From Rickettsiales bacterium (GTDB lineage Bacteria; Pseudomonadota; Alphaproteobacteria; Rickettsiales; UBA3002): DNA of 64,000 nt. The notes under the pieces are model-generated. The model made no database searches. It worked only from the letters and a program-made list of their open reading frames with translations, and was not told the origin of the DNA. Position 1 is the stretch's first letter; each line of letters starts with the position of its first letter. This document shows, in pieces, positions 1,567 through 59,952 of the stretch. The stretch spans positions 12,583 through 76,582 of the forward strand of contig JBIIAV010000002.1 of assembly GCA_044239745.1 (NCBI GenBank), in the 5' to 3' direction. A program made the position numbers and the translations under genes.

Positions 1567-4500
1567 GCCAGCAGCTCGACATTGCCGCCGATGGCAGCGG
1601 TGTTGATGGTGGTGGTGCGCTCGCTGATGAAGCGCAGCAAATAATGCGGGCCGCCCGCCTTGGGGCCGGTGCCCGAAAGCCCCTCGCCGCCGAACGGCTG
1701 CACGCCCACCACCGCGCCCGTCATGCTGCGGTTGACGTAGCGGTTGCCCACCGGCGCTTCGTCCAAGATCGCTTCCATCTTGGCGCGCAGGCGCGTATGC
1801 AGGCCGAAGGTCAGGCCATAGCCGCTGCCGCGGATCTCGCCTAAAATCTTGGGCAGCTCTTTCGATTTATACGTGAAGAAATGCAACACGGGGCCGAAGA
1901 TCTCCTCGCTAAGTTGGCTGGGCGAATCAAGGCCGAACACGTGCGGCGGCACGAAGGTATCGTCCGATGGGGGCGTTGCCCCCAAACCCCCTCCGCTTCG
2001 CGGCTCGCCTTCGGCTACGCACGGCTGAATCTCGCACGCATGGTGCCAGCGCGCGACGCGCTTCATCGCCCCGATATGGGCAAGCAGGCCTTGCTGCGCC
2101 CCACGGTCGATCACCGGACCGATATCGGTCGCAAGGTCGCGCGTGTCGGCCACCCGCAATTCGTCCATCGCGCCCACCAGCAAATCGCGCAGATGTTGCG
2201 CCACTTCTTCCTGCACAAATAGCATCCGCAAGCTGGAGCAGCGTTGCCCCGCCGAGCCGAACGCGCTCGTGATAATATCGTCGCAGGCCTGTTCCAGCAG
2301 CGCCGAGGAATCGACGATCATGGCGTTCATACCGCCCGTCTCGGCGATCAGCGGCACGATCGGGCCGTCCTTTTCGGCCAGTGCGCGCGCAATATATTTC
2401 GCAACGGTCGTCGAGCCGGTGAAGCAGACGCCCGCCACCTGCGGTGCCGTCACCAACGCGGCGCCCACCGTCTCGCCCGCGCCGCAGGCCAGCAGCAACG
2501 CGTCGGTCGGGATGCCCGCCTCGTGCAGCACGGCCACCGCTGCGGCAGCGATGCGCGGCGTTTGTTCGGCCGGTTTGGCGACCACACTATTGCCCGCAAC
2601 CAAGGCCGCCGCCACTTGGCCGATGAAGATCGCCAGCGGGAAATTCCACGGGCTGATGCACACGAACACCCCGCGGCCATGCAGCGTCAGCACGTTGCTT
2701 TCGCCGGTCGGCCCGTTCAGCGTTTGCGGCGCAAATATGCGTTCGGCCTCGTTGGCATAATAGCGGCAGAAATCGACCGCCTCGCGCAGCTCGGCCACGG
2801 CATCGGCATAGGTCTTTTTGGCTTCCGTCACGCATAGGGCGATCATGGCGTCGCGGCGTGCCTCAAGCAGGTCGGCGGCGCGGCGCAAAGCGGCCGCACG
2901 CGTCGCAACGGGGGTCGTGTCCCAGCCATGGAAGGCTGCCTGCGCCCGCGTCACCATCACCGCCGCATCGCTGGCGTGCATGTCCTTGGGTGCGGGTGTG
3001 GGGGTCGAAAAATGCTGCGCAACATGCTGCATGAAATCAAGGCGCACACTGCGGTAACCGAAATCGATGCCGAGCGGATTCTTGCGCGTCGCACCGTAGA
3101 GATCGACCGGCAGCGGAATATCACTCGCCGGTTGTGCGTCGGCGGCGCGCACATGCGCAATCGGGCTTACGGTCAGGTCATCGACCGCCGTGCGTTTATC
3201 CATCAACAGATGCACGAACGAGCTATTGGCGCCATTTTCGAGCAGCCGGCGGATGAGGTAGGCGAGCAGATCCTTGTGCGCCCCGACCGGCGCATAGATG
3301 CGCACGCGGTAGCCGGTAGCATCGTGATGCGCCGCTTGCGTAGGCTCCGCCGCCCCCTTAATCGACACAAGCTGATCATGCAGGCTTTCGCCCATGCCGT
3401 GCAAACGTTGGAACTCATACTGCGCGGGCACACGTTGCTGCGCCTCGGCCATGGTGATGATGGTGGCCACCGTCAGCGCGTTATGGGTCGCAAATTGCGG
3501 GTAAATCGTATCGCCCGCCGCCAATAATTGCTGCGCACAGGCGAGGTAGGAAAGGTCGGTATATTCCTTGCGCGTGAACACGGGATAGCCCGCCAATCCC
3601 TGCATCTGCGCATGCTTGATCTCGCTGTCCCAATAGGCGCCCTTGACCAGCCGCACCGGAATGCGTCGGCCCAGTTTCTTTGCCAATGCTGCAAGCGTTT
3701 CGGCCACGAACACGGCACGCTTCTGGTAGGCCTGCAACACGAATCCGATGCCCTCGAAATCGGCAAATTCGGGGTCCTCGAGCAGGTTCTTATAGATCTC
3801 GAGCTCGATCTCCAGCCGGTTGGCCTCCTCGGCATCCAGCGACACCGCGATGCGGTGCGCCTTGCCTTCGCGTAGAATATCCTTCAGGCGCGGTAGCAAT
3901 TCGTTCATCACGCGCGCTTCCTGTGTTTGGGCATAGCGCGGGTGCAGTGCCGAGAGCTTCACCGAAATGCCGGGGCGGGCGAACAGTTCCGTCTCCTTCG
4001 TCGCCGCCGCGATTTGGCGAATGCCGGTGAGGTACGATTGCACATAGCCTTGCGCCTGCGTGTCCGTGCGCGCGCCCTCGCCCAAAATGTCATAGGAAAT
4101 GGTGTAGCCCTTGGCCTCGTCGTCCTGCGCTTGTTTGATCGCGTCCGCCACCGTTTCGCCCATCACGAATTGGGTGCCGAGGAATTTCATGCCGGCGCGC
4201 AGTGCTTGCCGGATCACCGGCTCGCCGGAGCGTTTGATGAGCCCGCCGAACCATGCGGCCATCGAATCGCCGGCGTCCAAATCCAGCACCGAACCGGTCA
4301 GCATCAGCGCCCAGGTGCTGGCGTTCACCAGCGTCGATTCGCTCTGCCCCAGATGCTGCTTCCAGTTGCCCGAGGCGAACGTATCCTCGATCAGCGCATC
4401 GGCGGTGCTGCTATCGGGAATGCGCAGCAGCGCCTCGGCCAGGCACATCATCGCGATGCCTTCCTTGGTCGATAGGCCATAGGACTGCAAGAACGCCTCG

Positions 4501-4688: not shown

Positions 4689-4780
4689 GCCCACGGCCAA
4701 TGTCAACACGCGGCAGCATTCGCCCCCGCCGATTCGCGGCTTCCCCCGCCCGTGCGATTGCGCTATGACCGGCCCAACGT

Positions 4781-4857
<77 letters not shown>

Positions 4858-4874
4858 TCAGCTTAATTTAAATT

Positions 4875-5104
4875 GAAGGGGGCATCGCCCCCTACGCGCC
4901 GCCCATTCACACGTTTGTGATTAGCGTTGCGTAGCGCTTTATGGCGCATCCGCGCGGGAGAGGCGCAGCAACGCGAAGCCAATCACATCGCGCTACGCGC
5001 CGCCCATTCACACGTTTGTGATTAGCGTTGCGTAGCGCTTTATGGCGCGAGCCGCGATAGTGGAGGGGGTTTGGGGGTGATACCCCCATCCACGCGCGAA
5101 GCGC
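4875..5104. repeat. tandem/composite copy of the palindromic-element family immediately 3' of tRNA-Arg
   Basis: GGGGGC-ATC-GCCCCC hairpin at 4878-4892. A 56-bp perfect direct repeat (4892-4947 = 4993-5048, period 101 bp) contains GCGTAGCGCTTTATGGCGC. It ends with GAGCC...GGGGGT-GAT-ACCCCC. Confidence 0.85.
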
Positions 5105-5125
5105 TTATCAACGGCTAGCCTACGG

Positions 5126-7720
5126 CTACGCCGCCACCAAATTGATGATGCGGTTGGGCACCACGATGGCCTTTTTCAGCGTCTTGCCATCAAGCGCGGC
5201 CTGCACGCTGGCGTTCTCCATCGCGGCGGCTTTCGCGGCGTCCTCGGGCATGTCTTTCGCCAATTGCAGCGTGGCACGCAGCTTGCCGTTCACTTGCACC
5301 GCCACTGTCACCGTGTCCTCGACCAGCAAGGCCGCGTCCGCCTTCGGCCACGGGCGCGTCGCGATCAGGTCGCCATGGCCGACCATCGACCATAATTCCT
5401 CGGCAAGGTGCGGCAGCAGCGGCGCGATGAGGTGGATCATCACCGTCACTGCCTCGGCCATATCGGCCTGCGCGGGGGCATCGGTCGCGCTGGTTTTTTC
5501 CAACTGGTTGGTCAGCTCGCGGATGCGCGCGACCGCCTTGTTGAAGTGGAATGCATCGTAATCCTTGGTCACGGCGTCGATGGTCTTGTGCGTTTGTTTG
5601 CGCAAGTCCGAGCTGCCGGTCGCGGCCGCAGCACTGGCCAGCGCCGCTTGGTTATCGGCGACCAACCGATAGAGCCGCTGCACATAGCGCCAGGCGCCGT
5701 CGATGCCGCTTTCCGTCCACTCCAAGCCACGATCCGGCGGCGAATCGCTCATCATGAACAGCCGCGCCGTATCCGCGCCATACGCCTCGATGATGTGGCG
5801 CGGGTCGACAACATTCTTCTTTGATTTGCTCATCTTCTCGCTGCGGCCCATCGTCACGGCGGCGCCGGTCGCTTCATGTTTCCAGCCGCCCTTGCCGTCC
5901 TCCATCACCTCGGCGGGGTAGACCCATTCGCCCGTGGCGCTGTTTTTGAACGTGGCGTGGGCGACCATGCCTTGCGTCATCAGCCGTGCGAACGGCTCGG
6001 CGATATCGAGAATGCCGCAGGTGGTGAGGGCGCGGGTGAAGAAACGGGCATACAGCAAATGCAGCACCGCATGCTCGATGCCGCCGATATATTGCTGCAC
6101 CGGCAGCCAGCGCGCGGCCTGCGCACGGTCGATGCCGTGGCCGCCGCCGCCACTGGCGTAGCAGGCGAAATACCAGCTCGATTCAAAGAACGTGTCGAAC
6201 GTGTCCGTCTCGCGCTGCGCCGGTTTGCCGCAGGTCGGGCACGGCACATGTTTCCATGTCGGGTGGTGCGCCAGCGGGTTGCCGGCCTTGTCGAACGTCA
6301 CGTCTTCCGGCAGCGTCACCGGCAACTGCGATTCCGGCACCGGCACCACACCGCAATCGTCGCAATGGATGATGGGGATCGGGCAGCCCCAATAGCGCTG
6401 ACGGCTGATGCCCCAGTCGCGCAGGCGATAATTGATTTTGCGCTCGCCGCACCCCGCGCGCTCAAGCTCGGCGATGGCTTTTTCCTTGGCGTCGGCCACG
6501 CTCAGCCCATTAAACAGCGGCGAGTTGATGAGGGTGCCGTCGCCGGTATAGGCCTCGTTCAACGGTTCGGGGTAGCCGCTGACCACGGGCAGGATGGGCA
6601 ACTTATATTTCGTCGCGAATTCGAAATCGCGTACATCGTGCGCGGGGCAACCGAACACCGCACCGGTGCCGTAACCCATTAGCACGAAGTTGGCGATGTA
6701 AAGTGGATGCTCGCTGCCGGTGAACGGGTTGACGACCGTAAGACCGGTGTCAAAGCCCAGCTTCTCCGCCTTCTCGATCGCCTCCTCCGAGGTTCCCAGT
6801 TGGCTGCATTCCTTGATGAACGCGGCCGCTTGCGGGTTGTGGGCGATCATGCTTTGCGCCAACGGGTGCTCCGGCGCGATCGCAACAAAACTCATGCCAT
6901 AGAACGTGTCGGGGCGCGTGGTATAGATCGCGATGCTGCTTTCGATGACGGGTTGATCGGGCTTATTGCACAGCACCTTCAACGTCACCAGCGCGCCGGA
7001 GGATTTGCCGATCCATTTCTCCTGCATCAGGCGCACTTTGTCCGGCCATGCGTCGAGCGTGGACAGCCCTTGCAATAAATCCTCGGCATAGTCGGTGATG
7101 CGCAGGAACCATTGATTGAGCGTGCGCCGCTCGACCGGTGCGCCGCTGCGCCAGCCGCGTCCGTCGATCACTTGTTCGTTGGCTAGCACCGTGTGGTCGA
7201 TCGGGTCCCAGTTGACCACCGCCTGTTTGCGGTAGGCAATGCCACGGCGCAGCATCTCGAGGAAGAAGCGCTGCTCGTGCTGGTAATATTCGGGGTTGCA
7301 GGTCGTCACCTCGCGCGACCAGTCGTAGCTCAGGCCGATATCGCTCAGCTGTTCGCGCATCGTCGCGATGTTCTGCAGCGTCCACGCCTTGGGGTGCGTG
7401 TTGCGCTCGATGGCGGCGTTCTCCGCCGGTAGGCCGAACGCATCCCACCCCATCGGGTACAGCACGTTATAGCCCAGCGCGCGGCGGAAGCGCGCCGTCA
7501 CGTCGCCCAAGGTGTAATTGCGCACATGCCCCATATGGATATTGCCCGACGGATACGGGAACATCTCGAGCACGAAATAGTCGGGCTTGCCGTTGGGTTC
7601 GGGTGTGCGGAACACGCCGGTATCGTTCCACACGGCCTGCCATTTCATCTCGGCGGCGCGGGCATGATAGCGTGGCGCGTTACGCGCAGCGCCCTGCGTG
7701 CTGTCGGGTTGGTCGGTCAC
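5126..7720 (-). CDS. leuS: leucine--tRNA ligase
   Basis: 864 aa. HIGH motif (PYPSGNIHMGH) and KMSKS motif (EKMSKSKKN). GTG start at 7720 gives the conserved N-terminal RY..AE.KWQ..W. Confidence 0.96.
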   Translation of the reverse strand: MTDQPDSTQGAARNAPRYHARAAEMKWQAVWNDTGVFRTPEPNGKPDYFVLEMFPYPSGNIHMGHVRNYTLGDVTARFRRALGYNVLYPMGWDAFGLPAENAAIERNTHPKAWTLQNIATMREQLSDIGLSYDWSREVTTCNPEYYQHEQRFFLEMLRRGIAYRKQAVVNWDPIDHTVLANEQVIDGRGWRSGAPVERRTLNQWFLRITDYAEDLLQGLSTLDAWPDKVRLMQEKWIGKSSGALVTLKVLCNKPDQPVIESSIAIYTTRPDTFYGMSFVAIAPEHPLAQSMIAHNPQAAAFIKECSQLGTSEEAIEKAEKLGFDTGLTVVNPFTGSEHPLYIANFVLMGYGTGAVFGCPAHDVRDFEFATKYKLPILPVVSGYPEPLNEAYTGDGTLINSPLFNGLSVADAKEKAIAELERAGCGERKINYRLRDWGISRQRYWGCPIPIIHCDDCGVVPVPESQLPVTLPEDVTFDKAGNPLAHHPTWKHVPCPTCGKPAQRETDTFDTFFESSWYFACYASGGGGHGIDRAQAARWLPVQQYIGGIEHAVLHLLYARFFTRALTTCGILDIAEPFARLMTQGMVAHATFKNSATGEWVYPAEVMEDGKGGWKHEATGAAVTMGRSEKMSKSKKNVVDPRHIIEAYGADTARLFMMSDSPPDRGLEWTESGIDGAWRYVQRLYRLVADNQAALASAAAATGSSDLRKQTHKTIDAVTKDYDAFHFNKAVARIRELTNQLEKTSATDAPAQADMAEAVTVMIHLIAPLLPHLAEELWSMVGHGDLIATRPWPKADAALLVEDTVTVAVQVNGKLRATLQLAKDMPEDAAKAAAMENASVQAALDGKTLKKAIVVPNRIINLVAA

Positions 7721-10394: not shown

Positions 10395-10572
10395 TCGATT
10401 ATAAAAATTATCCACGGGCGGCAGGGTGGGGTGGTGGCAGTGCGGTGGCGTCATGGTCGTCCGAACGCGCCGCGACGCTTGCTTCCTTGGCCGCTTCATC
10501 GCACAATGCCGCTTGACAGGAATGGGCGTACTGCCTAGACCTCCCCCGTTTGTCCGGAGAATGTTTGCGCAT

Positions 10573-10630
10573 GAAGGGGCCTCGCCCCTTCGCGAACGCT
10601 GACCCGAGGCTCGCCATGAAGGCTACGCAC
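10573..10630 (-). repeat. intergenic copy of the palindromic-element family (carA leader region)
   Basis: Reverse complement reads GTGCGTAGCCTTCATGGCGAGCCTCGGGTCAGCGTTCGCGAAGGGGCGAGGCCCCTTC. Confidence 0.75.
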
Positions 10631-10653
10631 GCTAAAGTAGGATTCGTTATACG

Positions 10654-11904
10654 ATGACCATGCCGCTGAAACCTGCACCCAACGCCGCCTTACTTCTTGC
10701 GGATGGGACAGTGTTTTTTGGCCAAGGCATCGGGCAAGCGGGCACCACCAGCGGCGAGATCTGCTTCAACACCGCCATGACCGGCTATCAGGAAATCCTG
10801 ACCGACCCTTCGTATGCCGGCCAGATCATCACCTTCACCTTCCCGCATATCGGCAATGTCGGCACGAATGACGAGGATATCGAGAGCCTCGTGCCCGTCG
10901 CCGCCGGACTCATCCTGCGCGAGGCGATCACCGAACCTTCGAACTTCCGCAGCCAAAGCCACCTCGATGCGTGGATGAAAAAGCACGGCCTGCGCGGCAT
11001 CAGCGGGGTGGATACGCGGGCGCTGGCGCGCCATATCCGCATCAACGGCGCGCAGAATTGCGCCATCATCATCAGCGCGCAAGGCGCGCCTAACCTCGAT
11101 AAACTCAAAGCCGCCCTCGAAGCCGCACCCGACATGAACGGCTTGGAATTGGCCGCGCATGTGACGACGAAAGAAGCCTATACGTGGCAAGAGCCGCGCT
11201 GGACATTGGGCGCGGGGCATACGCCGCAAACGCAAGCGGTCGATGCATCGGTGCGTAGCGTAAGCGAGCCGCGCAGCGGCGGGGTCAGCGGCGAAGCCGC
11301 GAAGGGGCAAAGCGCCCCTTCATTGTGCCACGTAGTGGCAATAGATTACGGCGTCAAACGCAACATCCTGCGTTCGCTGATATCAGCCGGCGTGCGCCTC
11401 ACGGTCGTACCCGCCACCGCCACCGCCGAGGAGATCTTGGCCCTCAACCCCGACGGCATCTTCCTAAGCAATGGCCCCGGCGACCCCGCCGCCACCGGCA
11501 GCTACGCCGTGCCCACCATCAAGAAACTGATTGCCAGCAGCAAGCCCCTTTTCGGCATCTGTCTTGGCCACCAGATGCTCGGCATCGCCCTTGGCTGCCG
11601 TACCGAAAAAATGCGCCAAGGGCACCGGGGTGCCAACCATCCGGTGAAGGATCTGGCCACCGGCAAGGTCGAGATCACCTCGCAGAACCACGGCTTCGCG
11701 ATTAGCGATACCAACCTACCCGAGGACGTCGAAGTCACCCACCGCTCGCTGTTCGATGGCACCATTCAGGGCATCCGCGTCGTCGGCAAGCCCATCTTCA
11801 GCGTGCAAGGCCACCCCGAGGCCTCGCCGGGGCCACATGATTCGCACTACCTTTTCCAGCGCTTCGTTCAGTGCATGCGCGCCGATACAAAGAAAGCAGC
11901 CTAA
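10654..11904 (+). CDS. carA: carbamoyl-phosphate synthase small (glutaminase) subunit
   Basis: 416 aa. Conserved N-domain and class-I GATase (GICLGHQ, HGFA, QGHPE). Stop overlaps the carB start (TAATG). Confidence 0.96.
11251..11322 (+). repeat. palindromic-element copy inserted in-frame in the carA interdomain linker
   Basis: GTGCGTAGCGTAAGCGAGCCGCGCAGCGGCGGGGTCAGCGGCGAAGCCGCGAAGGGGCAAAGCGCCCCTTCA. It encodes [24 protein letters not shown]. Confidence 0.75.
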
Positions 11905-14900
11905 TGCCCAGACGTACCGACATAAAATCCATTCTCATCATCGGCGCGGGGCCCATCGTCATCGGTCAGGCGTGTGAGTTCGATTATTCCGGCACACAGG
12001 CGGTCAAGACGCTTAAAGCCGAAGGCTACCGCGTCATCTTGGTGAATTCCAATCCCGCCACCATCATGACCGACCCCGAATTCGCCGACGCCACCTACAT
12101 CGAGCCCATCACGCCGGAATATGTCGAGAAGATCATCGCGCGTGAACGCCCCGACGCGCTGCTGCCCACCATGGGCGGCCAGACGGCGCTCAACTGCGCC
12201 AAGGCGCTGGCCGAATCGGGCGTGCTTGCGAAATACAACGTCGAGATGATCGGCGCCGATCTCACCGCCATCAACAAGGCGGAGGATCGCCAATTGTTCG
12301 GCGACGCCATGGCGCGCATCGGCCTTGCCGTGCCGAAGAACGTCGTCGTCAAATCGATGGAAGAAGCGCGCGAGGCGCGCAAGGTCATCGGCCTGCCCGC
12401 CATCATCCGCCCCAGCTTCACCATGGGCGGCTCCGGCGGCGGTATCGCCTACAACCACGAGGAATTCGAGGCCATCGTCGCCTCCGGCCTCGATGCATCC
12501 CCCATCGGCGAGGTGATGATCGACGAGTCCGTGCTCGGCTGGAAAGAATACGAGATGGAGGTCGTGCGCGATAAGCACGACAACTGCATCATCGTCTGCA
12601 GCATCGAGAACATCGACCCGATGGGCGTGCATACGGGCGACTCCATCACCGTCGCGCCGGCGATGACCCTGACCGACAAGGAATACCAGATCATGCGCAA
12701 CGCATCCATCGCGGTGCTGCGCGAGATCGGGGTGGATACCGGCGGCTCCAACGTGCAGTTCGCGGTCAATCCGGCGGATGGCCGCATGGTCGTCATCGAG
12801 ATGAATCCGCGCGTGTCGCGCTCCTCGGCGCTGGCGTCGAAGGCCACCGGCTTTCCCATCGCCAAGGTCGCGGCCAAACTCGCCGTCGGCTACACGCTCG
12901 ACGAGATCATGAACGATGTCACCAAGGCAACGCCCGCAAGCTTCGAGCCGAGCATCGATTACGTCGTCGTCAAAATTCCGCGCTTCGCGTTCGAGAAATT
13001 CGCCGGTGCCGACACCACCCTCACCACCGCCATGAAATCCGTCGGCGAGAGCATGGCGATGGGTCGCAACTTCCCCGAGGCGCTGCAAAAGGCGCTGCGT
13101 TCGCTCGAGACCGGCCTTACCGGCCTCGATGCCATCGCCATCGCTGGCGTCACGCTCGATCATCTCGAAGGTTTGCGCGGTGCGCTTTCCATCGCCAGCC
13201 CGGATCGGTTGCTGCGCATCGCTCAAGCCATGCGCTACGGCATGGGCATCGACGAGATCCACGCCGTCACCAAATACGACCCGTGGTTCTTGGCGCAGCT
13301 TCGCAGCATCATCGACGCCGAGCAATGGGTCGAGATCAACGGCCTGCCGGCCGATGCTCCCTCGCTGCACCACCTCAAATCCCTCGGCTTCTCGGATAAG
13401 CAATTGGCGCGGCTTTCCGGCACCGGCGAGATGGATGTGCGCGCATTGCGCCACCGGCTCAACGTCCGCCCTGTCTTCAAGCGGGTCGATACCTGCGCCG
13501 CCGAATTCGATTCGCAGACCCCTTACATGTACTCGACCTACGAGGGCGACGGCACCCACCCCGCGCAGTGCGAATCCGCGCCCACCGCGCGCGAGAAGAT
13601 CATCATCTTGGGCGGCGGGCCCAACCGCATCGGCCAAGGCATCGAGTTCGATTATTGCTGCGTCCACGCGAGTTACGCACTGCGTGCGACGAATGAAGGG
13701 GACAAAAAGTCCCCTTCTTATGAAACAATAATGATCAACTGCAATCCCGAAACGGTATCGACCGATTACGACACCTCCGACCGCTTGTATTTCGAGCCGC
13801 TGACCGCCGAGGACGTCATCGAGATCATCGAGAAGGAAAAACAGAACGGCAGCATCAAGGGAGTCATTGTGCAGTTCGGCGGGCAAACACCCCTCAAGCT
13901 CGCCCACGCCCTCGAGAGCGCCGGCATCCCTATCATCGGCACCTCGGTCGATTCCATCGACTTGGCGGAGGATCGCGAGCGCTTCCAACAATTGCTGCAC
14001 GCGCTGAACCTGAAACAACCGAAGAACGCCATCTGCCGCCACGCCGAAGATGTCATCGCCCAAGCCGAGGAGATCGGCTACCCCGTGGTGGTACGTCCGT
14101 CCTACGTACTCGGCGGCCGCGCCATGAAGATCATCCACGATAGCAGCACCCTCAAGGCCTACGTCACCGAGCTGTTCACCCTATTCGGCGACGGGCCGGT
14201 GCTGCTCGATTCCTACCTGCAAGACGCCATCGAGCTCGATGTCGATTGCCTGTGCGACGGCGAGAACACCTTCGTCGCCGGCATCATGGAGCATATCGAG
14301 GAGGCGGGCATCCATTCCGGCGATTCGGCGTGTAGCTTGCCGCCCTATTCCCTGCCCGATGCGATCGTCGACGAAGTGCGCACACAGACCATCGCCCTCG
14401 CCAAAGCACTCAAGGTGCGCGGGTTGATGAACGTCCAGTTCGCGGTGCAAGCCGGCGAGATCTACATCATCGAGGTGAATCCGCGCGCGTCGCGCACCAC
14501 GCCGTTCGTCGCCAAGGCCACCGGCATCCCCATCGCCAAAATCGCCGCACGGCTGATGGCGGGTTCAACGCTTTCGGAATTCGATTTACCGGATGATAAA
14601 ACCCACATGAAGGCGCTTGGCCATATCGCGGTGAAGGAAGCGGTGTTCCCGTTCGCGCGTTTCGCGGGCGTCGATGTCCTGCTCGGGCCGGAGATGAAAT
14701 CCACCGGCGAGACCATGGGCATCGACCGCAGCTTCGCCGCCGCCTTCGGCAAGGGCTTCATCGGTTCGGGTTCCACGCTGCCCAAAACCGGCACCGCCTT
14801 CCTCTCGGTGCGCGACCGCGATAAACCCATGGCCGCCGTCATCGCGCAGGAATTGCTCGCGGTCGGGTTCAAAGTCGTCTGCACTCGTGGCACCGGCGAA

Positions 14901-15279: not shown

Positions 15280-15963
15280 ATGTCGCGCCCAGACCTCATC
15301 GCCCTCGCCACCACTCATGGTACAGATAAATGGAATGGCCACTGGTATGCGCAGCATTATCAAAACCATTTGAAACACTTTATAGATGAGCCAATTTCCT
15401 TACTTGAAATCGGCATCGCGAATGGTGATTCGCTGCGCATGTGGCGTGACTATTTCCTGAAAGCGACCATTTACGGACTCGATATCAATGACAAACGGCA
15501 GTATGCGGAAGAACGTATCCGTATCCATCACGGCTCACAGGCGGACCCCGTCACTATCGCCCGCATCATCGCGGATTGCCCAAACGGCTTCGACGTCATT
15601 GTGGATGATGGCAGCCACCGTAGCGAACATGGCATCACAACACTCCACATGCTCTGGCCAAGCCTAAAGGATAATGGCTGGTATATTATTGAGGATCTGC
15701 AGACCAGCTACTGGGCTATGTTCGGCGGCAATCCGCAGGGCGTCGGACAACAAACTATGTTAGACTACCTGCAATCGCTGGTTCATTCCCTCAACTGGCA
15801 GGAAATTCATCGTCCCCGCTACGAGCCCAGCCTGCTCGATACAACGCTCGTTGGCATGCATTTCTATCATAACATGGTCTTCCTTCAGAAAGGTAATAAC
15901 CGCGAAGGTAGCAACGTCCTGAAGGATAATATCATGCCCAATACCATGCCTTGGGAGAACTAG
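15280..15963 (+). CDS. class I SAM-dependent methyltransferase (HGTDKW... sugar/LPS-modifying type), in an AT-rich islet
   Basis: 227 aa. Motif I LLEIGIANGDS, post-I IYGLDIN, motif II FDVIVDDGSH, motif III GWYIIEDL. AAGGA ribosome-binding site. The sequence is visibly AT-richer than its flanks. Confidence 0.75.
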   Translation: MSRPDLIALATTHGTDKWNGHWYAQHYQNHLKHFIDEPISLLEIGIANGDSLRMWRDYFLKATIYGLDINDKRQYAEERIRIHHGSQADPVTIARIIADCPNGFDVIVDDGSHRSEHGITTLHMLWPSLKDNGWYIIEDLQTSYWAMFGGNPQGVGQQTMLDYLQSLVHSLNWQEIHRPRYEPSLLDTTLVGMHFYHNMVFLQKGNNREGSNVLKDNIMPNTMPWEN

Positions 15964-16529: not shown

Positions 16530-17482
16530 CAAACGTCTGGGGTCTGGTCGACGACCGCACAGGGCATACCGGCCAAGTGCTCGGCGTCATCACGCGGCTC
16601 GGCCTTCCTTACACCTTGAAACGGCTCGATTATAACGGGTTTGCAGCACTGCCTTCGCTGCTACTGGGCGCGTCGCTATTGGGTGTCGATGCCGCAACCA
16701 AGGCCCGTCTCGCGCCGCCGTATCCGTCGCTGGTCATCGCTGCCGGCAGGCGCACCTTGCCGGCACTGCGCTACATCAAGCAGCATGCGCCCGCCACCCG
16801 CACCGTCTATCTCATGCGGCCGGAGATCGACCGCGACATCGACCTCGTCGTCGTGCCCGAACATGACCGTGTCGCGCCGGCGGCGCACATCATCACCAGC
16901 CTTGCGCCGCTGCATGCCGTAACGCCCGATACACTGGCGCGCGCCCGCGCCGAGTGGGAGGGGAAATTCGCCCATCTGCCACGGCCGTTCATCACGCTGT
17001 GCATGGGTGGCAACACCAAGCGCGGCAGCTACAGCGCCGCCCAATGGCGCGAGGTGATCCAGCGTTCGTTACTGCTCGCGGGGCAGGGTTCGCTACTCAT
17101 CACCACCAGCCGCCGCACCCCGAAAGAAGCAATCGCCATGTGCGAACCGCTGCTGCAAAAACCGCACGTGCTGCACCGCTGGGATACCGATAAGGACAAC
17201 CCCTATCTCGGCATGCTCGCCTGCGCCGATGGCATCGTCGTCACTGGCGATTCGCTCTCCATGTGTGCCGAGGCCTGCGTCGCCGGTAAGCCCGTATTCG
17301 TTTATGCGGCAAGCAATGTCGCGCCGGTTAAACATGTGCAGTTGCACCAAACACTTTACGACCGCGGGCTGGCGCGCCCGCTCGATAATGCGGCGCGGCT
17401 CGATTGGCAGCCCGCCGGCGCGCTCGACGATGTCGGCGATGTCGTCGCCCAGATCCGCAACCGCTTCGCGGAGATAGGTTAG
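16526..17482 (+). CDS. ELM1/DUF1022-family protein (mitochondrial-fission ELM1-like, glycosyltransferase-like fold)
   Basis: 318 aa. The GTG start overlaps the greA stop (GTGA). N-terminus [18 protein letters not shown] and the ...[10 protein letters not shown] motif are typical of this family, as recalled from memory. Confidence 0.65.
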
Positions 17483-17490
17483 TTTTTTAG

Positions 17491-17671
17491 TAGGGGACTC
17501 TTTGTCCCCTACGCTTCGCTGACCCCCAGCCGCTTCGCGGCTCGCCATGGAAGGCTACGCACCGCCTACTCAAACGTTTGGATTATCCGTGCGTAGCGCT
17601 TTATGGCGCGAGCCGGAGCGAAGCGAACGAGGGGGAACGGAGTGGGGGCGAAACGCCCCCATAGCGAAGCG
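17491..17671. repeat. full inverted dimer of the palindromic-element family between convergent genes
   Basis: Left hairpin GGGGAC-TCTTT-GTCCCC. Left arm CCGCTTCGCGGCTCGCCATGGAAGGCTACGCAC. Loop CGCCTACTCAAACGTTTGGATTATCC. Right arm GTGCGTAGCGCTTTATGGCGCGAGCCGGAGCGAAGCG. Right hairpin GGGGGC-GAAAC-GCCCCC. Confidence 0.85.
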
Positions 17672-17679
17672 AACGACTC

Positions 17680-18933
17680 TCAAAACCCCTTCGGTGGTGG
17701 CGAGATCACCTGCAACGTATTGCCCTGCACCTGCATGATGGCAAGCCCGCGCTGCACCGAGCCGTTCGCCCGCAGGCGGAAAATGCCGTTCGCTGGGCCG
17801 GCGAATCCGTTGGGGTTGGTCAGCGCCGCGGCATCGAACGGCCGGCCGGAAGTCGCCAGCGTCACCGCCAGTGCCACCGCGTCGTAGGCAAGGCTTGCCA
17901 AGCGTGGCGGCGGGTAGGCATAGGTCGCCAAGAATCGCGCCTCGAATTTGCTGGTCAGTGCCGGCGGGCTCGAGGCGAACCACGCCGTATCGAGGTTGAC
18001 GCGGCGCAGCAGGTCGGCGTCGTCCCACAGGCCGGTGCCGAGGAATTGCATATTGCTCGGTTTCACACCGCGGGTGTTCAGCCCGCGCAGGATCGTATCG
18101 AGCGTGGTGCCGCCTTCGGGAATGAGGATCGCATCGAAATTCGGGGTCTGGCCGTTACGCACCAGCCCGTTGAGGGCGGTGTCCATGCCGCCGCCTTGCA
18201 GCAAATATTTCGATTCCGCCGCCAGCTTCAGCCCTTGCTTGGCCGCCGCATCGCGCGCGCTGGCCAGCACGGCATCGCCCAGCGGCGTGTTGGGTGCCAA
18301 CACTGCAATGCGCGTCTTGCCGCTTAAAATGGCATAGGTCACCACCCGTTCGGTCTGCTCGGCGGGCGAGAACCCGAACATATAAGTGCCGGGGCTCGCC
18401 TGCGTGCGGGTGTTGGAGAAGCTGAGCACGCTGACATTCTTTGCCTGCGCCAGCGGTGCGCCAGCGGCGGCGTCCTCGGCGAATAGCGGGCCGATGATGA
18501 ACTGCGCGCCTTCATCGAGCGCTTCCTTCATCGCTTTGGCGGCCTGTTCGGGGGTGTCGCCGGTATCTTTCGGCAACAGCTCCACCTTGGTCTTCAGCTG
18601 GTTCACGCCCAGCCGCGCGTATTTATCGAACAACGAGACCGAGGCCGCGTCCTGCAGTGCCTTGCCCAGTTCGGCGTTGCGCCCCGAAAGCGGCAGCAGC
18701 AGACCCACCTTCACATGGGCGCTGGGCACTAGCGTATCCACCGGCGCGGTTTCATCAAACGCCGCCGAGGAACCGATACCGCTTTGGCTGGGGTTGGTGA
18801 TCAATGTCTGTTGCAAGCTGGGTGCGCGCTGCGTGGTCGAGGGATAGGGCGACGGCGCCACCGCACATCCCGCTACGAGCAACAGCACGCCGATGGCGGT
18901 CACGGCCGATTTCCAAAAATGGTGGCAGTTCAT
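17680..18933 (-). CDS. LpoA-like / LivK-type periplasmic-binding-fold lipoprotein (penicillin-binding protein activator family)
   Basis: ATG 18933 gives MNCHHFWKSAVTAIGVLLLVAGC, with a lipobox. Type-1 periplasmic binding protein fold. It is divergent from rsmI, as lpoA is in E. coli. Confidence 0.7.
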   Translation of the reverse strand: MNCHHFWKSAVTAIGVLLLVAGCAVAPSPYPSTTQRAPSLQQTLITNPSQSGIGSSAAFDETAPVDTLVPSAHVKVGLLLPLSGRNAELGKALQDAASVSLFDKYARLGVNQLKTKVELLPKDTGDTPEQAAKAMKEALDEGAQFIIGPLFAEDAAAGAPLAQAKNVSVLSFSNTRTQASPGTYMFGFSPAEQTERVVTYAILSGKTRIAVLAPNTPLGDAVLASARDAAAKQGLKLAAESKYLLQGGGMDTALNGLVRNGQTPNFDAILIPEGGTTLDTILRGLNTRGVKPSNMQFLGTGLWDDADLLRRVNLDTAWFASSPPALTSKFEARFLATYAYPPPRLASLAYDAVALAVTLATSGRPFDAAALTNPNGFAGPANGIFRLRANGSVQRGLAIMQVQGNTLQVISPPPKGF

Positions 18934-44138: not shown

Positions 44139-44672
44139 ATGCTCAATCTCGTCCTCTATCAACCGGATATTCCCCAAAATCTAGGGGCTTGCCTGCGGCT
44201 TTGCGCATGCATGGGCGCCACGGTGCACATCATCGAGCCCTGCGGCTTTGTGCTGGATGATACCAAAATTCGTCGCGCCGGCATGGATTATATGCATAAA
44301 GTCAACTATGTCCGCCATCTCGATTGGCAGGCCTTTCTAAACTATCGCCATGCAGCGGATGAAGCCCGCGTAGCCTCCCATGGCGAGCCGCGTGCGGAGG
44401 GGGGAAGCAAAGCGAGGGGGGCGATGCCCCCTTCACGATTACTCCTACTCGAGACGGATGGCGCCACCCCCTACACCGAGATTTCCTACCAACCCACCGA
44501 TTACATCGTCTTTGGCCGCGAATCGGCCGGCACGCCGGCAGCGCTCTATGCGCAGATGGACACCACCCTCACCATCCCGATGGTGGCGGGCATGCGCTCC
44601 TTGAATGTCGCGATGAGCGCTGGCATGGTGGTCGCCGAAGCCTGCCGCCAAATGAATTGGAAATTTGCATGA
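44139..44672 (+). CDS. trmL: tRNA (cytidine/uridine-2'-O)-methyltransferase TrmL (SpoU/TrmH family)
   Basis: MLNLVLYQPDIPQNLGACLRLCA..., FGRESAGTP, IPM..GMRSLNVAMSAGMV. Roughly 24 aa longer than canonical because of the repeat insertion. Confidence 0.9.
   Translation: MLNLVLYQPDIPQNLGACLRLCACMGATVHIIEPCGFVLDDTKIRRAGMDYMHKVNYVRHLDWQAFLNYRHAADEARVASHGEPRAEGGSKARGAMPPSRLLLLETDGATPYTEISYQPTDYIVFGRESAGTPAALYAQMDTTLTIPMVAGMRSLNVAMSAGMVVAEACRQMNWKFA
44367..44434 (+). repeat. palindromic-element copy inserted in-frame in trmL
   Basis: CGCGTAGCCTCCCATGGCGAGCCGCGTGCGGAGGGGGGAAGCAAAGCGAGGGGGGCGATGCCCCCTTC. It encodes ARVASHGEPRAEGGSKARGAMPPS. Confidence 0.75.
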
Positions 44673-45766
44673 GCCTTGACGAGAAAAAAGCCACCGCCGC
44701 CGCATGGTTTCGCACCCTGCGCGACGATATCTGCGCCAAATTCGAGACGATCGAGGCGGAATACGCCGCCGCACATCCCGTAGCGGATTCGAGCATGCGT
44801 AGCGCGGATGGCCCGCGCGAGCCGGAGGCCGTTAGGCCGAACGATGGGGGGCCGGTAGGCGGGGGCGACTTCGCCCCCCGTGGCGAAGCCACCGCACGCT
44901 TCATACGTACTCCGTGGCAGCGCGACGGTGGCGGCAGCGGCGAGATGTCGATCATGAAAGGCCGCGTGTTCGAGAAGGTCGGCGTCAATATCTCGGTCGT
45001 TCAAGGCACATTTTCAGAGCAGTTCCGCCACGAGATCCCTGGTGCTAGCGAGGACCCGAATTTCTGGGCGGCGGGCATTTCGCTCGTCGCGCACATGGCA
45101 TCGCCCCTCGTGCCGGCGGCACATATGAACACCCGCATGATCGCGGTGGGCGAGCGCCCTACCCGCCTGTGGTTCGGCGGCGGCGGCGACCTCAACCCCA
45201 TGGTCGAGAATTCGCAGGACACCGCCGATTTCCACGCCGCCTTCAAAGCCGCCTGCGATGGGCTGAATACCGCAGCACATGCGAGCAGCGAGCCATCCAG
45301 CAACTACTACGACGCCTTCAAGCAATGGTGCGACGAATATTTCTTCATCCCCCACCGCAACGAGGCGCGCGGCGTCGGCGGCATTTTCTACGATTATCTC
45401 GGCCTCAACCGCTTCGGGGCGGATACCGCGCCCGTCACCTCCGGCCGCTTCGGCAAGGGCGGGGTCACCGCCGCGGCGACCGCTCACGGCATGCAGCTTG
45501 CCGCCAACGCCGCCATCGACTGGGGGCAAGGGCTTGCCTTCACGCAACAGGTCGGGCGGGCGTTCGCTTCCATCTACCCAGCCCTCATCCGCCGCCATAT
45601 GTTCGAGCCATGGACCGAGGCCGAGCGTCACCACCAACTCGTTAAGCGCGGGCGCTATGCCGAGTATAATTTGCTGTACGATCGTGGCACCCGCTTCGGC
45701 CTGATGACGGGTGGCAACACCGAAGCGATTTTAATGTCGCTGCCGCCCGTGGCTATTTGGGAATAG
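44669..45766 (+). CDS. hemF: oxygen-dependent coproporphyrinogen III oxidase
   Basis: From ATG 44669 (ATGA overlap with the trmL stop). Motifs WQRDGGG, H.NTR, WFGGGGDL, HRNEARGVGGIF, RGRY.E.NL.YDRGT.FGL and PP...W. Roughly 65 aa longer than the E. coli enzyme. Confidence 0.92.
   Translation: MSLDEKKATAAAWFRTLRDDICAKFETIEAEYAAAHPVADSSMRSADGPREPEAVRPNDGGPVGGGDFAPRGEATARFIRTPWQRDGGGSGEMSIMKGRVFEKVGVNISVVQGTFSEQFRHEIPGASEDPNFWAAGISLVAHMASPLVPAAHMNTRMIAVGERPTRLWFGGGGDLNPMVENSQDTADFHAAFKAACDGLNTAAHASSEPSSNYYDAFKQWCDEYFFIPHRNEARGVGGIFYDYLGLNRFGADTAPVTSGRFGKGGVTAAATAHGMQLAANAAIDWGQGLAFTQQVGRAFASIYPALIRRHMFEPWTEAERHHQLVKRGRYAEYNLLYDRGTRFGLMTGGNTEAILMSLPPVAIWE
44795..44890 (+). repeat. palindromic-element copy inserted in-frame near the hemF N-terminus
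   Basis: ATGCGTAGCGCGGATGGCCCGCGCGAGCCGGAGGCC...GGGGGCGACTTCGCCCCC...GGCGAAGCC. It encodes MRSADGPREPEAVRPNDGGPVGGGDFAPRGEA. Confidence 0.7.
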
Positions 45767-45771
45767 TTTTT

Positions 45772-45806
45772 GCCGCGGCTTCGCCGCAGGGGGCGATGCC
45801 CCTTCA
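45772..45806. repeat. short element fragment / hairpin between convergent hemF and ampG
   Basis: GCCGCGGCTTCGCCGCAGGGGGC-GAT-GCCCCTTCAG. Likely also acts as a bidirectional terminator. Confidence 0.55.
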
Positions 45807-57382: not shown

Positions 57383-58012
57383 CTATCTGTTTCCGTGCGG
57401 TTTAAGTGATAATTGCGATATCGAAATAATGCTGGATATCGCATGCGTTTTACTTGGTTTTGCGGTGCTTTGATAGTCCCATGATTCACTGGCTTTTTTC
57501 AATTCCTCGGCAGCGTTTTCGCCTTTGGGAAAGAGGGCGATGCCCCCTGCCCCCATCAGCCGATGCGCCATAGCGAACAGACCATCCAGCGCCGTCAACG
57601 CCCGCGCCGTCACCACATCGTATTGCCCGACGAGCTCGGCGATATCGATCGCCATGACCGTAACATTGGAAAGACCAAGACGATGCTTTGCTTCGGTAAG
57701 GAACGCTGCCTTACGCTGGTCCTGCTCGACCAAGGTAACGAACAGTTGCGGACATTGTATCGCAATCACCAACCCCGGTAAGCCAGCCCCACTTCCCAAA
57801 TCGACAAGGGTTTTGGCATTTTTGGGAATCAACGGAACCAATTGCAAGCTATCATCGATATGGCGCGACCAAATATCGGCTTGTGTTGCAGGGCCAATCA
57901 GATTGATCTTCGCGTTCCACTTTAAAAGCAGCGCGACATAATCGGCCATGGGTGAAAATGTTTCACGTGAAACATTTTGTGGCGATGATGTTTGTTGATC
58001 AACACGAAGCAT
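57383..58012 (-). CDS. rsmG: 16S rRNA (guanine527-N7)-methyltransferase
   Basis: 209 aa. VSRET...LLLKWNAKINL N-terminus. SAM motif DLGSGAGLPG. Confidence 0.93.
   Translation of the reverse strand: MLRVDQQTSSPQNVSRETFSPMADYVALLLKWNAKINLIGPATQADIWSRHIDDSLQLVPLIPKNAKTLVDLGSGAGLPGLVIAIQCPQLFVTLVEQDQRKAAFLTEAKHRLGLSNVTVMAIDIAELVGQYDVVTARALTALDGLFAMAHRLMGAGGIALFPKGENAAEELKKASESWDYQSTAKPSKTHAISSIISISQLSLKPHGNR
57959..57974. promoter_or_regulatory. parS: parS centromere site 1 (inside rsmG codons for VSRET)
   Basis: Perfect TGTTTCACGTGAAACA. The palindrome extends to 24 bp (57955-57978). Confidence 0.9.
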
Positions 58013-58061
58013 GGTGTCTACATAATCAATCTGACGCGTCTTGTCATCTCGAATCTAAAAA

Positions 58062-58077
58062 TGTTTCACGTGAAACA
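58062..58077. promoter_or_regulatory. parS: parS centromere site 2 (rsmG-mnmG intergenic)
   Basis: Perfect TGTTTCACGTGAAACA. The palindrome extends to 26 bp (58057-58082). Confidence 0.9.
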
Positions 58078-58089
58078 TTTTTGGATGGT

Positions 58090-59952
58090 TCAGGCCGCGG
58101 ATTGACGGCGACGCATATAGGTCATGATGGCGGTGATAGCCGCTGGCGTGACGCCCGGGATGCGGCTGGCTGCGCCCAACGTGGGTGGTCGAGTACGTTT
58201 CAATTTGTCACGGATTTCGTTGGAAAGTGATCCGACCACATCGTAATCGACCGACTCTGGGATGACCAATTGTTCGTCCATTTTAAAGGATTCGATATCG
58301 GCCTGCTGACGTGCAAGATAGGATTTATAGACCGATTCGATCTCTATCTGTTCGCGAATATCCGGTCGGAAGGATTTCAATATTGGCCATATCTCTGATA
58401 GGCGATCGAAGCTGATGGTCGGATATGCCAACAGATCAAGAATGGAACGTTTGACACCGTCCTGATTAATTTGGAGTCCGACGTCGACTGCTTTATTGGG
58501 TGAAATTGTTTCACGTGAAACAATTTGCATCGCGTCTTCGAGGAGAGAATGTTTCACGTGAAACATTTTTTGACGTTCCGGACGGACACAGCCGATGGAA
58601 ATACCAATCGGAGTGAGGCGAAGGTCGGCATTGTCGGGGCGTAAGCTCAACCGATACTCCGAACGCGACGTGAACATACGATACGGCTCTTGGGTACCGA
58701 GGGTCGTGAGGTCGTCGATCATCACGCCGATATAGGCTTGCGAACGATCGACGATAAAGGGGTCGGAGCCAGAAGCGGCGAGGGCGGCATTAAGCCCCGC
58801 GACAAGCCCTTGGCCACCAGCTTCTTCGTATCCGGTGGTGCCATTGATCTGGCCGGCAAGGTATAAGCCTTTGACTTTTTTGGTTTCTAAGGTTTGTTTC
58901 AGTTCGCGTGGGTCGACATAATCATATTCGATGGCGTAGCCAACGCGGATGATATGGGCGTTCTCCAACCCCGGGATGCTGGCGATCATGGCGCGTTGAA
59001 CTTCCTCGGGGAGGGATGTCGAGATGCCGTTGGGGTAAACGGTGGTATCGTCCAAACCCTCCGGCTCGAGGAAAATCTGATGGCGCTCGCGGTCAGCAAA
59101 ACGGGTGATCTTATCCTCGATCGAAGGGCAATAGCGTGGGCCCGAGGACTTGATCTGTCCCGAATACATGGGCGAACGATGGACGTTGTTACGAATAATT
59201 TCGTGAGTTTTTTCAGTCGTATGTGTGATATAGCAGGTAATTTGCGGCACCGTTACGTGATCCGTCATATAAGAGAAGGGGGCGGGTGGATTATCGCCCA
59301 TTTGCGGGGTGAGGATGCTCCAGTTTATCGTTGTTCCATCCAACCGGGCAGGGGTGCCGGTCTTCAATCGACCGACGGTCAGCCCCAGGGCGCGAATGGA
59401 ATTGGCAAGGGCGATCGAGGGTTTTTCACCGACACGGCCGGCGGGCGTTTGCGTTTCACCACAATGGATGAGGCCATTCAAGAATGTTCCGGTCGTAAGT
59501 ACCACGCGGCCGGTTTGATAGGTGGTTCCGGACGCCCCGACAACGGCCACAACCGCGCCGTTTTCCATGACAATATCATCGGCCGCATCCTCGATGATGG
59601 TGAGGTTCGCATACTCGCTAAGCAAGGCCTGTACTGCGTTACGATAGAGTTTGCGATCGGCCTGCGCGCGCGGCCCACGCACCGCCGGCCCCTTACTGGC
59701 ATTGAGCATTTTGTAATGGATGCCGGCGCGATCAATAGCGCGTCCCATGACACCGTCGAGGGCATCGATCTCGCGTACCAAGGTGCCCTTGGCGATGCCG
59801 CCGATGGCGGGGTTGCACGACATTTCGCCCACCGTGTCGCGCTTATGGGTCAGCAAACAGGTGGTGGCGCCAAGGCGCGCGGCGGCCGCGGCAGCCTCGG
59901 TGCCGGCATGCCCGCCGCCAATGACGATGACATCAAATAATTTGTTATTCAT
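58090..59952 (-). CDS. mnmG: tRNA uridine-5-carboxymethylaminomethyl synthesis enzyme MnmG (GidA)
   Basis: 620 aa. [19 protein letters not shown] motif, [30 protein letters not shown]. Confidence 0.96.
58507..58522. promoter_or_regulatory. parS: parS centromere site 3 (inside mnmG, read as VSRET)
   Basis: Perfect TGTTTCACGTGAAACA within the 24-bp palindrome AAATTGTTTCACGTGAAACAATTT. Confidence 0.9.
58550..58565. promoter_or_regulatory. parS: parS centromere site 4 (inside mnmG, read as MFHVKH)
   Basis: Perfect TGTTTCACGTGAAACA, 43 bp from site 3. It is translated in a different frame from site 3. Confidence 0.9.

Follow-up and report, generated by a model that had tools for sequence, protein, structure and literature searches.

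Composite GTAG-tagged palindromic repeats, between genes and in frame within them, in an uncultured alphaproteobacterial clade

In the 64,000-nucleotide stretch of contig JBIIAV010000002.1 analysed here (the window), the whole gap between two convergent genes, an ELM1-like gene ending at 17482 and a minus-strand gene for an LppC/periplasmic-binding-like protein ending at 17680 (Pfam), is occupied by two facing copies of a palindromic repeat (17488–17676). What kind of DNA is this, where else does it occur, and what could have spread it? We find that the repeat belongs to a dispersed family whose members lie between genes and also in frame within intact housekeeping genes. We read the repeats, with a probability of roughly 0.7, as a lineage-specific family of composite, GTAG-tagged elements that resemble repetitive extragenic palindromic (REP) sequences and bacterial interspersed mosaic elements (BIMEs).

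An inverted dimer and its repeat family

The intergenic sequence is made up of two inverted copies of a 70–95-nt unit, in the order tail hairpin, spacer and head (minus strand), 26 nt, then head, spacer and tail hairpin (plus strand). The initial annotation had described a hairpin of about 180 nt formed by two facing copies between convergent genes, and both the sequence and the folds bear this out. Positions 17486–17676 fold to a single long hairpin, with a DNA folding energy of -62 kcal/mol against -36.7 +/- 3.4 for shuffled sequences (z = -7.4) and an RNA folding energy of -107.8 against -72.2 (z = -8.0); 0 of 200 shuffles match the energy of the dimer.

The left arm (17488–17565, minus strand), delimited by sequence and DNA fold, has the top nhmmer score of the window (55.5 bits). 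Read from its head GTGCGTAGCC at 17562, it continues through a first hairpin (H1, GCC-ttccat-GGC), GAGCC and a second hairpin (H2, GCCGC-GAA-GCGGC) into GGGGGTCAGCGAAGC, and ends in a GTAG-tagged terminal hairpin, GTAGGGGAC-aaaga-GTCCCCTAC, at 17490–17512. An exact match to the protein of the ELM1-like gene is on record in just GCA_041442895.1 and two Logan contigs, L001 and L002. These contigs, short-read assemblies made independently for one organism, each stop inside this arm (at 3209–3281 and 1424–1496 of the respective contigs), so that the repeat units evidently break short-read assemblies. The right arm (17586–17676, plus strand; 37.9 bits) has its head at 17589 and represents a second spacer subtype, GAGCCGGAGCGAAGCGAACGAGGGGGAACGGAGT, which is followed by the hairpin TGGGGGCG-aaa-CGCCCCCA (17643–17661) and by AGCGAAGCGAACGA; a 28-nt stretch of this arm, GCGAGCCGGAGCGAAGCGAACGAGGGGG, is identical in two copies within priA of L004, one of the related loci designated here by L numbers. 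Between the arms lie 26 nt (17563–17588, CGCCTACTCAAACGTTTGGATTATCC) that include the palindrome CAAACGTTTG and the pre-head motif GATTATCC. This stretch had been taken for a loop, and it does sit between the facing copies, but a relative of it, CGCCCATTCACACGTTTGTGATTAGCG, is found again at 4899–4926 and 5000–5027, so it is a part of the element and not a random loop.

The anatomy of the unit was derived from 19 copies aligned on a GCGTAGC anchor together with DNA folding, in which half-units fold as a string of hairpins. The order is GATTAKCC (a motif of this kind lies 5' of the head in most copies), an invariant GCGTAG, H1, an invariant GAGCC, then either H2, with the general form (A)GCCGC-GAA-GCGGC(T), or in its place the spacer GGAGCGAAGCGAACGA, a G-rich stretch that is often GGGGTCAG, a terminal hairpin (H3) of the GGGGGC/GCCCCC type and sometimes a GCGC hairpin (H4). 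A profile search with nhmmer (E < 0.01) over the window, 80 related loci from metagenome-assembled genomes (MAGs) and 120 metagenome loci, about 2 Mb in all, recovers 89 copies, and the family therefore extends into related MAGs and metagenomes beyond the window. CGTAG stands immediately 5' of H1 in 85 of the 89 copies and the G-rich motif occupies the fixed position +15 in 22 of them, while H3 is often itself tagged, with (G)TAG(C) preceding it in at least 20 of 75 copies.

The hairpins co-vary. H1 occurs in 33 distinct versions, with stems of 2–6 bp that differ yet stay complementary (e.g., GCC/GGC, GCGC/GCGC, GCGCT/GGCGC, GCCGC/GCGGC, GCGGCG/CGCCGC and GCTG/CAGC); its outer stem averages 3.48 bp against 0.68 in shuffled sequences, the highest of 1000 shuffles reaching 1.39. 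The terminal hairpin, with stems of 5–10 bp, is represented by 46 distinct complementary stems. Covariation was assessed by anchor-based stem counts and shuffles, the MAFFT alignment being too gappy for RNAalifold.

Within the window, the head pattern GCGTAGC-N2-14-GCGAGCC is found 8 times against 0.06 expected, and 0 of 100 shuffled sequences reach 8. All ten strong GGGG hairpins of the window lie at the nine loci that the initial annotation had listed as sharing one module. The head is present at seven of these: 1966, 4875 (two heads), 10573, 11251, 17491 (two heads), 44367 and 44795. At the two others, 13696 and 45772, there is just a terminal hairpin or part of a tail, so the shared module holds for most of the list and not for all of it. 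The shorter motifs behave differently when counted alone: the 9-mer GTGCGTAGC, with one mismatch allowed, is not enriched in the window (24 vs 20.3), nor is the GCGAAGC mini-hairpin (26 vs 25.7), though the latter is concentrated within the elements. An exact match to GTGCGTAGC at 21364 in gshB was considered as a tenth copy and rejected as a chance match, because comparison with E. coli GshB shows no insert at that place.

The 11-mer that forms the last codons of the ELM1-like gene calls for a similar explanation. It had been suggested that the element rebuilt this C-terminus; instead, each of the eight relatives compared retains Arg-Phe here with Ala, Pro or Cys after it, and Glu is also present in five of the eight (RF[A/P]E), with L009 carrying CCGCTTCGCCG at the corresponding position. 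Because Arg-Phe is kept in all eight relatives, we regard the 11-mer as ancestral coding sequence that resembles the repeat by chance.

The inverted arrangement itself recurs. Seven further dimers were found, in L124, L136, L139, L165, L170, L188 and L189, which with that of the window makes eight, all with their GTAG ends inside. Two units that face inwards by their GTAG ends across 20–50 nt thus form the "full" element, an arrangement of the kind called REPIN (REP doublet forming a hairpin) or "TT dimer".

Structured repeats of this sort could be immobile and kept by selection, site by site, as a conserved RNA motif with a regulatory or structural function, for instance in ending transcription, stabilising mRNA or binding a protein. 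The co-varying hairpins and the position of the dimer between convergent genes would fit such a motif, as would copies at the same site in relatives: one in the carA 5' region of L006, and the dimers of L165, L170 and L189, which have similar left flanks (that of L170 is flanked by genes read as ndk and purN). However, copies occur in both orientations and in 5' regions, 3' regions and coding sequence, and close relatives lack a copy at many of the sites. The hairpins are not followed by a T-run, a scan for intrinsic terminators found none, and Rfam returned no family for the repeats, the sole match above the gathering score in the window being a tRNA-Arg. Because copies sit at differing places between genomes, a single conserved regulatory structure is unlikely, and we consider the RNA-motif explanation as a whole to be highly improbable. 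The lack of T-runs also indicates that the hairpins are not canonical terminators; nevertheless, dimers between convergent genes would probably act as transcript-end hairpins as well, a role that their placement makes plausible.

In-frame copies within intact housekeeping genes

Five of the nine window loci lie in sense orientation and in frame within intact open reading frames (ORFs), namely putA, carA, carB, trmL and hemF, where the inserted segments sit at linkers and loops of housekeeping proteins. The initial annotation had proposed a dispersed palindromic family like the REPs and the Rickettsia palindromic elements (RPEs), with copies in coding regions, and the coding-region copies are genuine: the inserts are absent from homologues, as detailed below.

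The putA copy (1962–2034, minus strand), found by nhmmer and by translation of the ORF, encodes EIQPCVAEGEPRSGGGLGATPP and appears as a clean 20-residue gap when the protein is compared with Bradyrhizobium PutA (3haz_A). In carA, the copy at 11241–11324 (plus strand) encodes 27 extra residues in the interdomain linker, at a position between E. coli CarA residues 186 and 192; these residues are absent from L003 (80% identity), L004 (78%) and other relatives, and CarA of L156 holds a copy in the same linker. The carB insert (13692–13718, plus strand) is a terminal hairpin only, GAAGGGGAC-aaaaa-GTCCCCTTC, 27 nt long and encoding NEGDKKSPS. At this loop, 45 of 48 related loci compared have a segment of 32–33 residues without any insert, L013 has a full unit and L011 an unrelated insert. 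Empty sites, looked for in relatives as a mark of mobile DNA, are thus found for both carA and carB.

The copy in trmL (44357–44438, plus strand), a gene for a SpoU-type tRNA methyltransferase, encodes DEARVASHGEPRAEGGSKARGAMPP and places about 26 residues where 2 residues lie between positions 68 and 71 of 4kdz_A, at a site whose insert length varies from 0 to about 45 residues among homologues. In the AlphaFold2 model, residues 82–100 are coil with a confidence score (pLDDT) of 60–67, against about 90 or more across most of the remainder. The ORF itself (trmL, 44139–44672) is represented in the database by a protein of 153 residues (100% identity, 86% coverage), whereas the alignment with homologues begins at the first Met of the ORF, which has 177 codons; the database start has probably been called 24 codons too late. 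In hemF, the copy at 44785–44890 (plus strand), identified by a pattern match and a weak nhmmer match, encodes DSSMRSADGPREPEAVRPNDGGPVGGGDFAPRGEA near the N-terminus, ahead of the part that aligns with coproporphyrinogen oxidase 3e8j_A. HemF of L172 and L151 has no insert at this site and carries a copy at a second one. HemF also exceeds its solved homologues by a separate segment of about 35 residues (HemF residues 246–288; 45401–45532), which is common to relatives and is not repeat-like.

Relatives add about a dozen further in-frame insertions. Among these genomes, PriA of L004 contains three in-frame copies, and an MnmC-like protein of L198, named from a reading of its translation, contains two. 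In-frame copies in antisense orientation number two, in L191 (PurH-like) and L144, whose names are likewise read from translations. The genes so decorated are carA, carB, putA, hemF, trmL and priA, plus those read as mnmC and purH. Selfish DNA within protein-coding genes, best known from the Rickettsia RPEs and a few intragenic REPs, is therefore pervasive in a GC-rich uncultured alphaproteobacterial clade, and its low-complexity inserts of 9–35 residues confuse alignments and may confuse gene calling.

In-frame inserts of unrelated sequence were also noted in these genes. CarB of L004 (11414–14761) carries PPVPPLEERRVARGEVSRERRAH, CarA of L019 has a long linker insert, and CarB of L011 (about 8545) carries GAVASEAWPVMGQEPHILHPAPRITA at the loop that is occupied in the window and in L013. 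Further repeat families in the clade may thus also insert in frame. In L176, two other palindromic repeat types (at 4690–4800 and 5395–5480), GTCATTGCGAGGAGCCGAAGGCGACGCGGCAATCCAG and GTCATTCCAGCGAAAGCTGGAATCC, each with its inverse, lie beside a family copy.

All sense intragenic copies, at about 11 independent sites, are read in the frame GAG-CCG (Glu-Pro), and the two antisense copies share one other frame. Of the six frames, four lack stops in about two-thirds of the 69 non-coding copies; since most of these frames are open, stop codons alone do not explain the bias. Intragenic orientation tracks the gene and not the replichore, since, within one replichore, putA and its copy are on the minus strand and the other four genes with theirs on the plus strand. 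The peptide encoded in the favoured frame (...RVA..GEPRSGGG...PPS), probably a disordered one, has a high content of Arg, Gly, Ala, Pro, Ser and Glu.

Could the peptide, rather than the DNA, be what is selected? On this explanation a Gly/Pro/Arg-rich module would be favoured as a linker or tag, with DNA similarity a secondary consequence, and the strong frame bias and the placement of inserts at linkers and loops would follow. Yet about three-quarters of the copies are non-coding, a third of those have stops in that frame, and the two antisense intragenic copies encode a different peptide. Moreover, peptide conservation tracks DNA motifs, with RVA arising from GCGTAGC, GEP from GGCGAGCC and PP from CCCCC. 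A protein-level module is scarcely credible on these grounds. We infer instead that the intragenic copies of the DNA element are translated and that they survive only where the encoded peptide is harmless and flexible, selection acting as a filter; such a filter would account for the constant GAG-CCG frame of the sense copies.

Age, affinities and possible means of spread

In a carA-based scan limited to one genome per species, the nearest relative has 80% CarA identity, and the closest genomes are all uncultured alphaproteobacterial MAGs with inconsistent labels; some related MAGs are loosely labelled "Rickettsiales bacterium". Copies occur in L004 (five within 3.6 kb), L006, L012 and L013, and no copy was found in the examined stretches of L003, L005, L008 and L009. 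A metagenome scan gave nhmmer-true copies in 51 of the 120 loci returned. The repeats thereby provide a sequence marker for the clade.

Copies lie at different places in different genomes, and relatives with empty sites exist; other sites are occupied in relatives as well. These comprise trmL and hemF in L092, the carA linker in L156 and the region upstream of carA in L006. In L092, the trmL-hemF pair is syntenic with that of the window at about 70% DNA identity, and both of its sites are occupied by subtypes that differ from those of the window. Over the match columns of the hidden Markov model, mean identity between copies is 0.738 within a locus and 0.737 between loci, and the best partners of the window copies are in other organisms. 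The initial annotation had inferred an active or recently active mobile element from the density of copies. Because occupied sites are shared with relatives of about 70% identity, subtypes have diverged and copies within a locus are as different as those between loci, the family looks instead old and persistent and not the product of a recent burst; most copies would be old and vertically inherited. Within the window, a 101-bp tandem duplication at 4892–5093 is the family's sole sign of recent change.

One close published likeness is to the GTAG REPs and BIMEs surveyed by Di Nocera in 2013 (PMC3733652). Like these, the present repeats are numerous, dispersed, GC-rich stem-loops with GTAG at one end and sub-families distinguished by complementary stem changes; they form "TT" dimers, which in GTAG REPs are 20–100 bp apart with GTAG inside, and likewise tend to lie in gaps between convergent genes. 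GTAG and CGTC REPs are also found, in a minority of cases, within ORFs, where they encode 20–80 residues, often in replication or repair genes (PMC3733652), and priA of L004 is a counterpart here. The differences concern size, host and distribution: GTAG REPs are single hairpins of 20–40 bp with stems of 6–13 bp, found mostly in Gammaproteobacteria, whereas the present unit is a 70–95-nt string of three to four hairpins with invariant GCGTAG and GAGCC, its host belongs to a GC-rich uncultured alphaproteobacterial clade, and its intragenic share is high (five of nine window loci). GCGTAGC, GCGAGCC and GEPR are all missing from the supplementary lists of that survey (PMC3733652).

Hairpins formed by inverted REP doublets show compensatory changes (Bertels and Rainey 2011, PMC3116915), and GTAG is needed by the transposase TnpA-REP to bind or cleave folded single-stranded REPs (PMC8266576). 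The likeness to this system of REPINs and REP-associated tyrosine transposases (RAYTs) lies in inverted units which, with their spacer, give a long single-strand hairpin with compensatory stem changes, in single units that resemble remnants, and in a family that appears old and persistent and not recently expanded. In contrast to it, no cognate RAYT was found in the sampled loci, the arms are often of different subtypes, and many single units are intragenic. A further lead comes from the terminal inverted repeats (TIRs) that flank TIRYT tyrosine-transposase genes, in which a degenerate GTAG unit is joined to unrelated stem-loops and a GGGGWSAS motif is shared (PMC3733652). The present unit is similarly composite, and GGGGTCAG, the motif with a fixed position in 22 of 89 copies, fits GGGGWSAS; the likeness amounts to this 8-nt match, with no TIRYT gene found in the sampled loci.

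The in-frame copies invite comparison with a different group. Ogata et al. reportedly described, in 2000, RPE-1 and related palindromic repeats lying in frame within Rickettsia housekeeping genes. RPEs are AT-rich. Both they and the repeats described here leave housekeeping genes intact, can occur several to a gene, occupy tolerated loops and keep a consistent frame and orientation. RPEs are CGTC-tagged according to Di Nocera (PMC3733652), and the present family is GTAG-tagged and GC-rich (the window has about 61% G+C) in a host outside the genus Rickettsia. Because tag, base composition and host all differ, we do not regard the family as an RPE, a distinction drawn from description, in which a kinship of sequence is neither expected nor apparent. 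The family shares with GTAG REPs most of the DNA features that define them, in a longer composite unit, and behaves like Rickettsia RPEs. The initial annotation had not recognised the element as described, and this stands at most for the particular family, which seems to be undescribed; elements of this kind, their inverted dimers and intragenic REPs have all been published (PMC3733652).

Several points weigh against this placement and against the mode of spread that it implies. The unit is unlike a classical REP of 20–40 bp, with H1 stems of just 2–6 bp and a conserved composite block of 70–95 nt. In the gappy alignment, RNAalifold pairs the GC..GC of GCGTAGC with that of GCGAGC, which would put GTAG in an internal loop and not in a free 5' tag. 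GTAG repeats are found mainly in Gammaproteobacteria, Alphaproteobacteria being dominated by the CGTC type, for which no transposase is known (PMC3733652). Mobility would be deduced from the distribution of copies, and translation of the inserts is an inference as well. Finally, insensitive searches that covered the window and about 2 Mb of related and metagenome loci, a small fraction of any one genome, turned up no gene of the RAYT, TIRYT or IS200 type.

What, then, spreads the repeats, and why does one frame prevail? These are the two main questions that surround the family. We propose that an HUH/Y1 transposase of the RAYT or TIRYT type, its gene lying elsewhere in the genome, would recognise the units in folded single-stranded form and spread them in trans as non-autonomous DNA, a mechanism that we put forward tentatively, at somewhat less than even odds. 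A transposase of the TnpA-REP/IS200 type had been anticipated. It was sought by tblastn, using RayT and IS200 TnpA queries, against the window, 82 loci and 120 metagenome loci, and with an HUH...Y..NP regular expression over all ORFs of at least 90 residues; neither yielded anything relevant. A weak tblastn match in L176 is spurious, being antisense to fabD, and a gene between two inward-facing heads in L170 was rejected because it encodes a membrane protein. If a cognate Y1 transposase exists, the family offers a compact case for how REP-type elements enter coding sequence and why one frame survives.

Target-site duplications, also anticipated for a mobile element, are not visible at the eight dimers or at the cleanly delimited carB insert, and the carA junction lies in a variable linker. 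This fits single-strand HUH transposition and argues against a classical TIR-type MITE (miniature inverted-repeat transposable element), i.e. a deletion derivative of a DDE-transposase insertion sequence that moves by cut-and-paste and whose terminal inverted repeats would be the two arms. An inverted repeat of about 180 nt that folds to a long hairpin and recurs as dimers is typical of MITEs. Against this, however, the arms of the dimers are usually of different subtypes and their centres variable, single arms are found by themselves, as is even the terminal hairpin, and no gene like those of insertion sequences was seen in the sampled DNA. Together with the missing duplications, these observations make a MITE very unlikely.

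The same lack of a transposase in the sampled loci would be expected if the repeat had no dedicated transposase at all and were spread and homogenised by recombination, gene conversion or hairpin-templated repair, as has been proposed for alphaproteobacterial CGTC REPs, which are common in that class and have no associated transposase (PMC3733652). Gene conversion would also give the same permissive sites with different subtypes, as in the window and L092, and identity that is equal within and between loci; the 28-nt identical stretch lies in non-orthologous copies of genomes about 20% apart in CarA. However, conversion alone cannot account for copies reaching new intragenic sites, and an invariant GCGTAG before a co-varying hairpin, together with inward-facing dimers, resembles the substrates of RAYTs. 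We consider spread without a transposase unlikely, although it deserves a place beside the RAYT/TIRYT-type mechanism.

A more speculative and, in our view, doubtful reading is that the family has evolved to be "coding-competent", with a consensus that is open and benign in one sense frame, so that it colonises essential genes and steadily supplies new disordered loops across the clade. The points behind it are the use of one sense frame despite four that are usually open, the occupation of the same loops by different subtypes in diverged relatives, and the lack of a visible transposase. In a stronger version some inserts may have been co-opted, e.g., PriA's three, or those of TrmL and MnmC, both enzymes of tRNA modification; in a variant, the element may spread without any RAYT.

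Other copies and surroundings in the window

The remaining window copies are non-coding. Between tRNA-Arg(CCT) (4781–4857) and the 3' end of leuS lies a composite cluster (4873–5106, plus strand) that consists of a terminal hairpin, a truncated inverted head, two heads within a tandem duplication, a full tail and a GCGC-GAA-GCGC hairpin. The two repeats of the 101-bp duplication, at 4892–4992 and 4993–5093, share 56 nt that are 100% identical.

An intergenic copy at 10568–10640 (minus strand; pattern match and nhmmer) lies antisense to carA, 14 nt upstream of its start codon, and could possibly affect carA expression. L006, at 74% CarA identity, carries a copy that matches it in place and orientation (1893–1968), and the copy is absent in L003, L004 and L012. 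The last locus, a partial copy without a head and without assigned strand (45772–45806), lies between hemF and a convergent gene of the major facilitator superfamily (by Pfam), and comprises a GCGGC-ttc-GCCGC hairpin and AGGGGGC-gat-GCCCCTT.

Two further observations concern the setting of the repeats. Four copies of the palindrome TGTTTCACGTGAAACA, which we take to be the parS consensus, are found at 57955–57978, 58058–58081, about 58503–58528 and about 58546–58571, two of them inside mnmG. The genes are ordered mnmE-mnmG-rsmG-parA-parB and the cumulative GC skew has its minimum at about 57–58 kb, and these three features together place the window near a replication origin. Between carB and greA, a lower-GC ORF (15280–15963) with a weak match to Methyltransf_24 looks like a local insertion, since carB and greA are nearly adjacent in L004 and L012.

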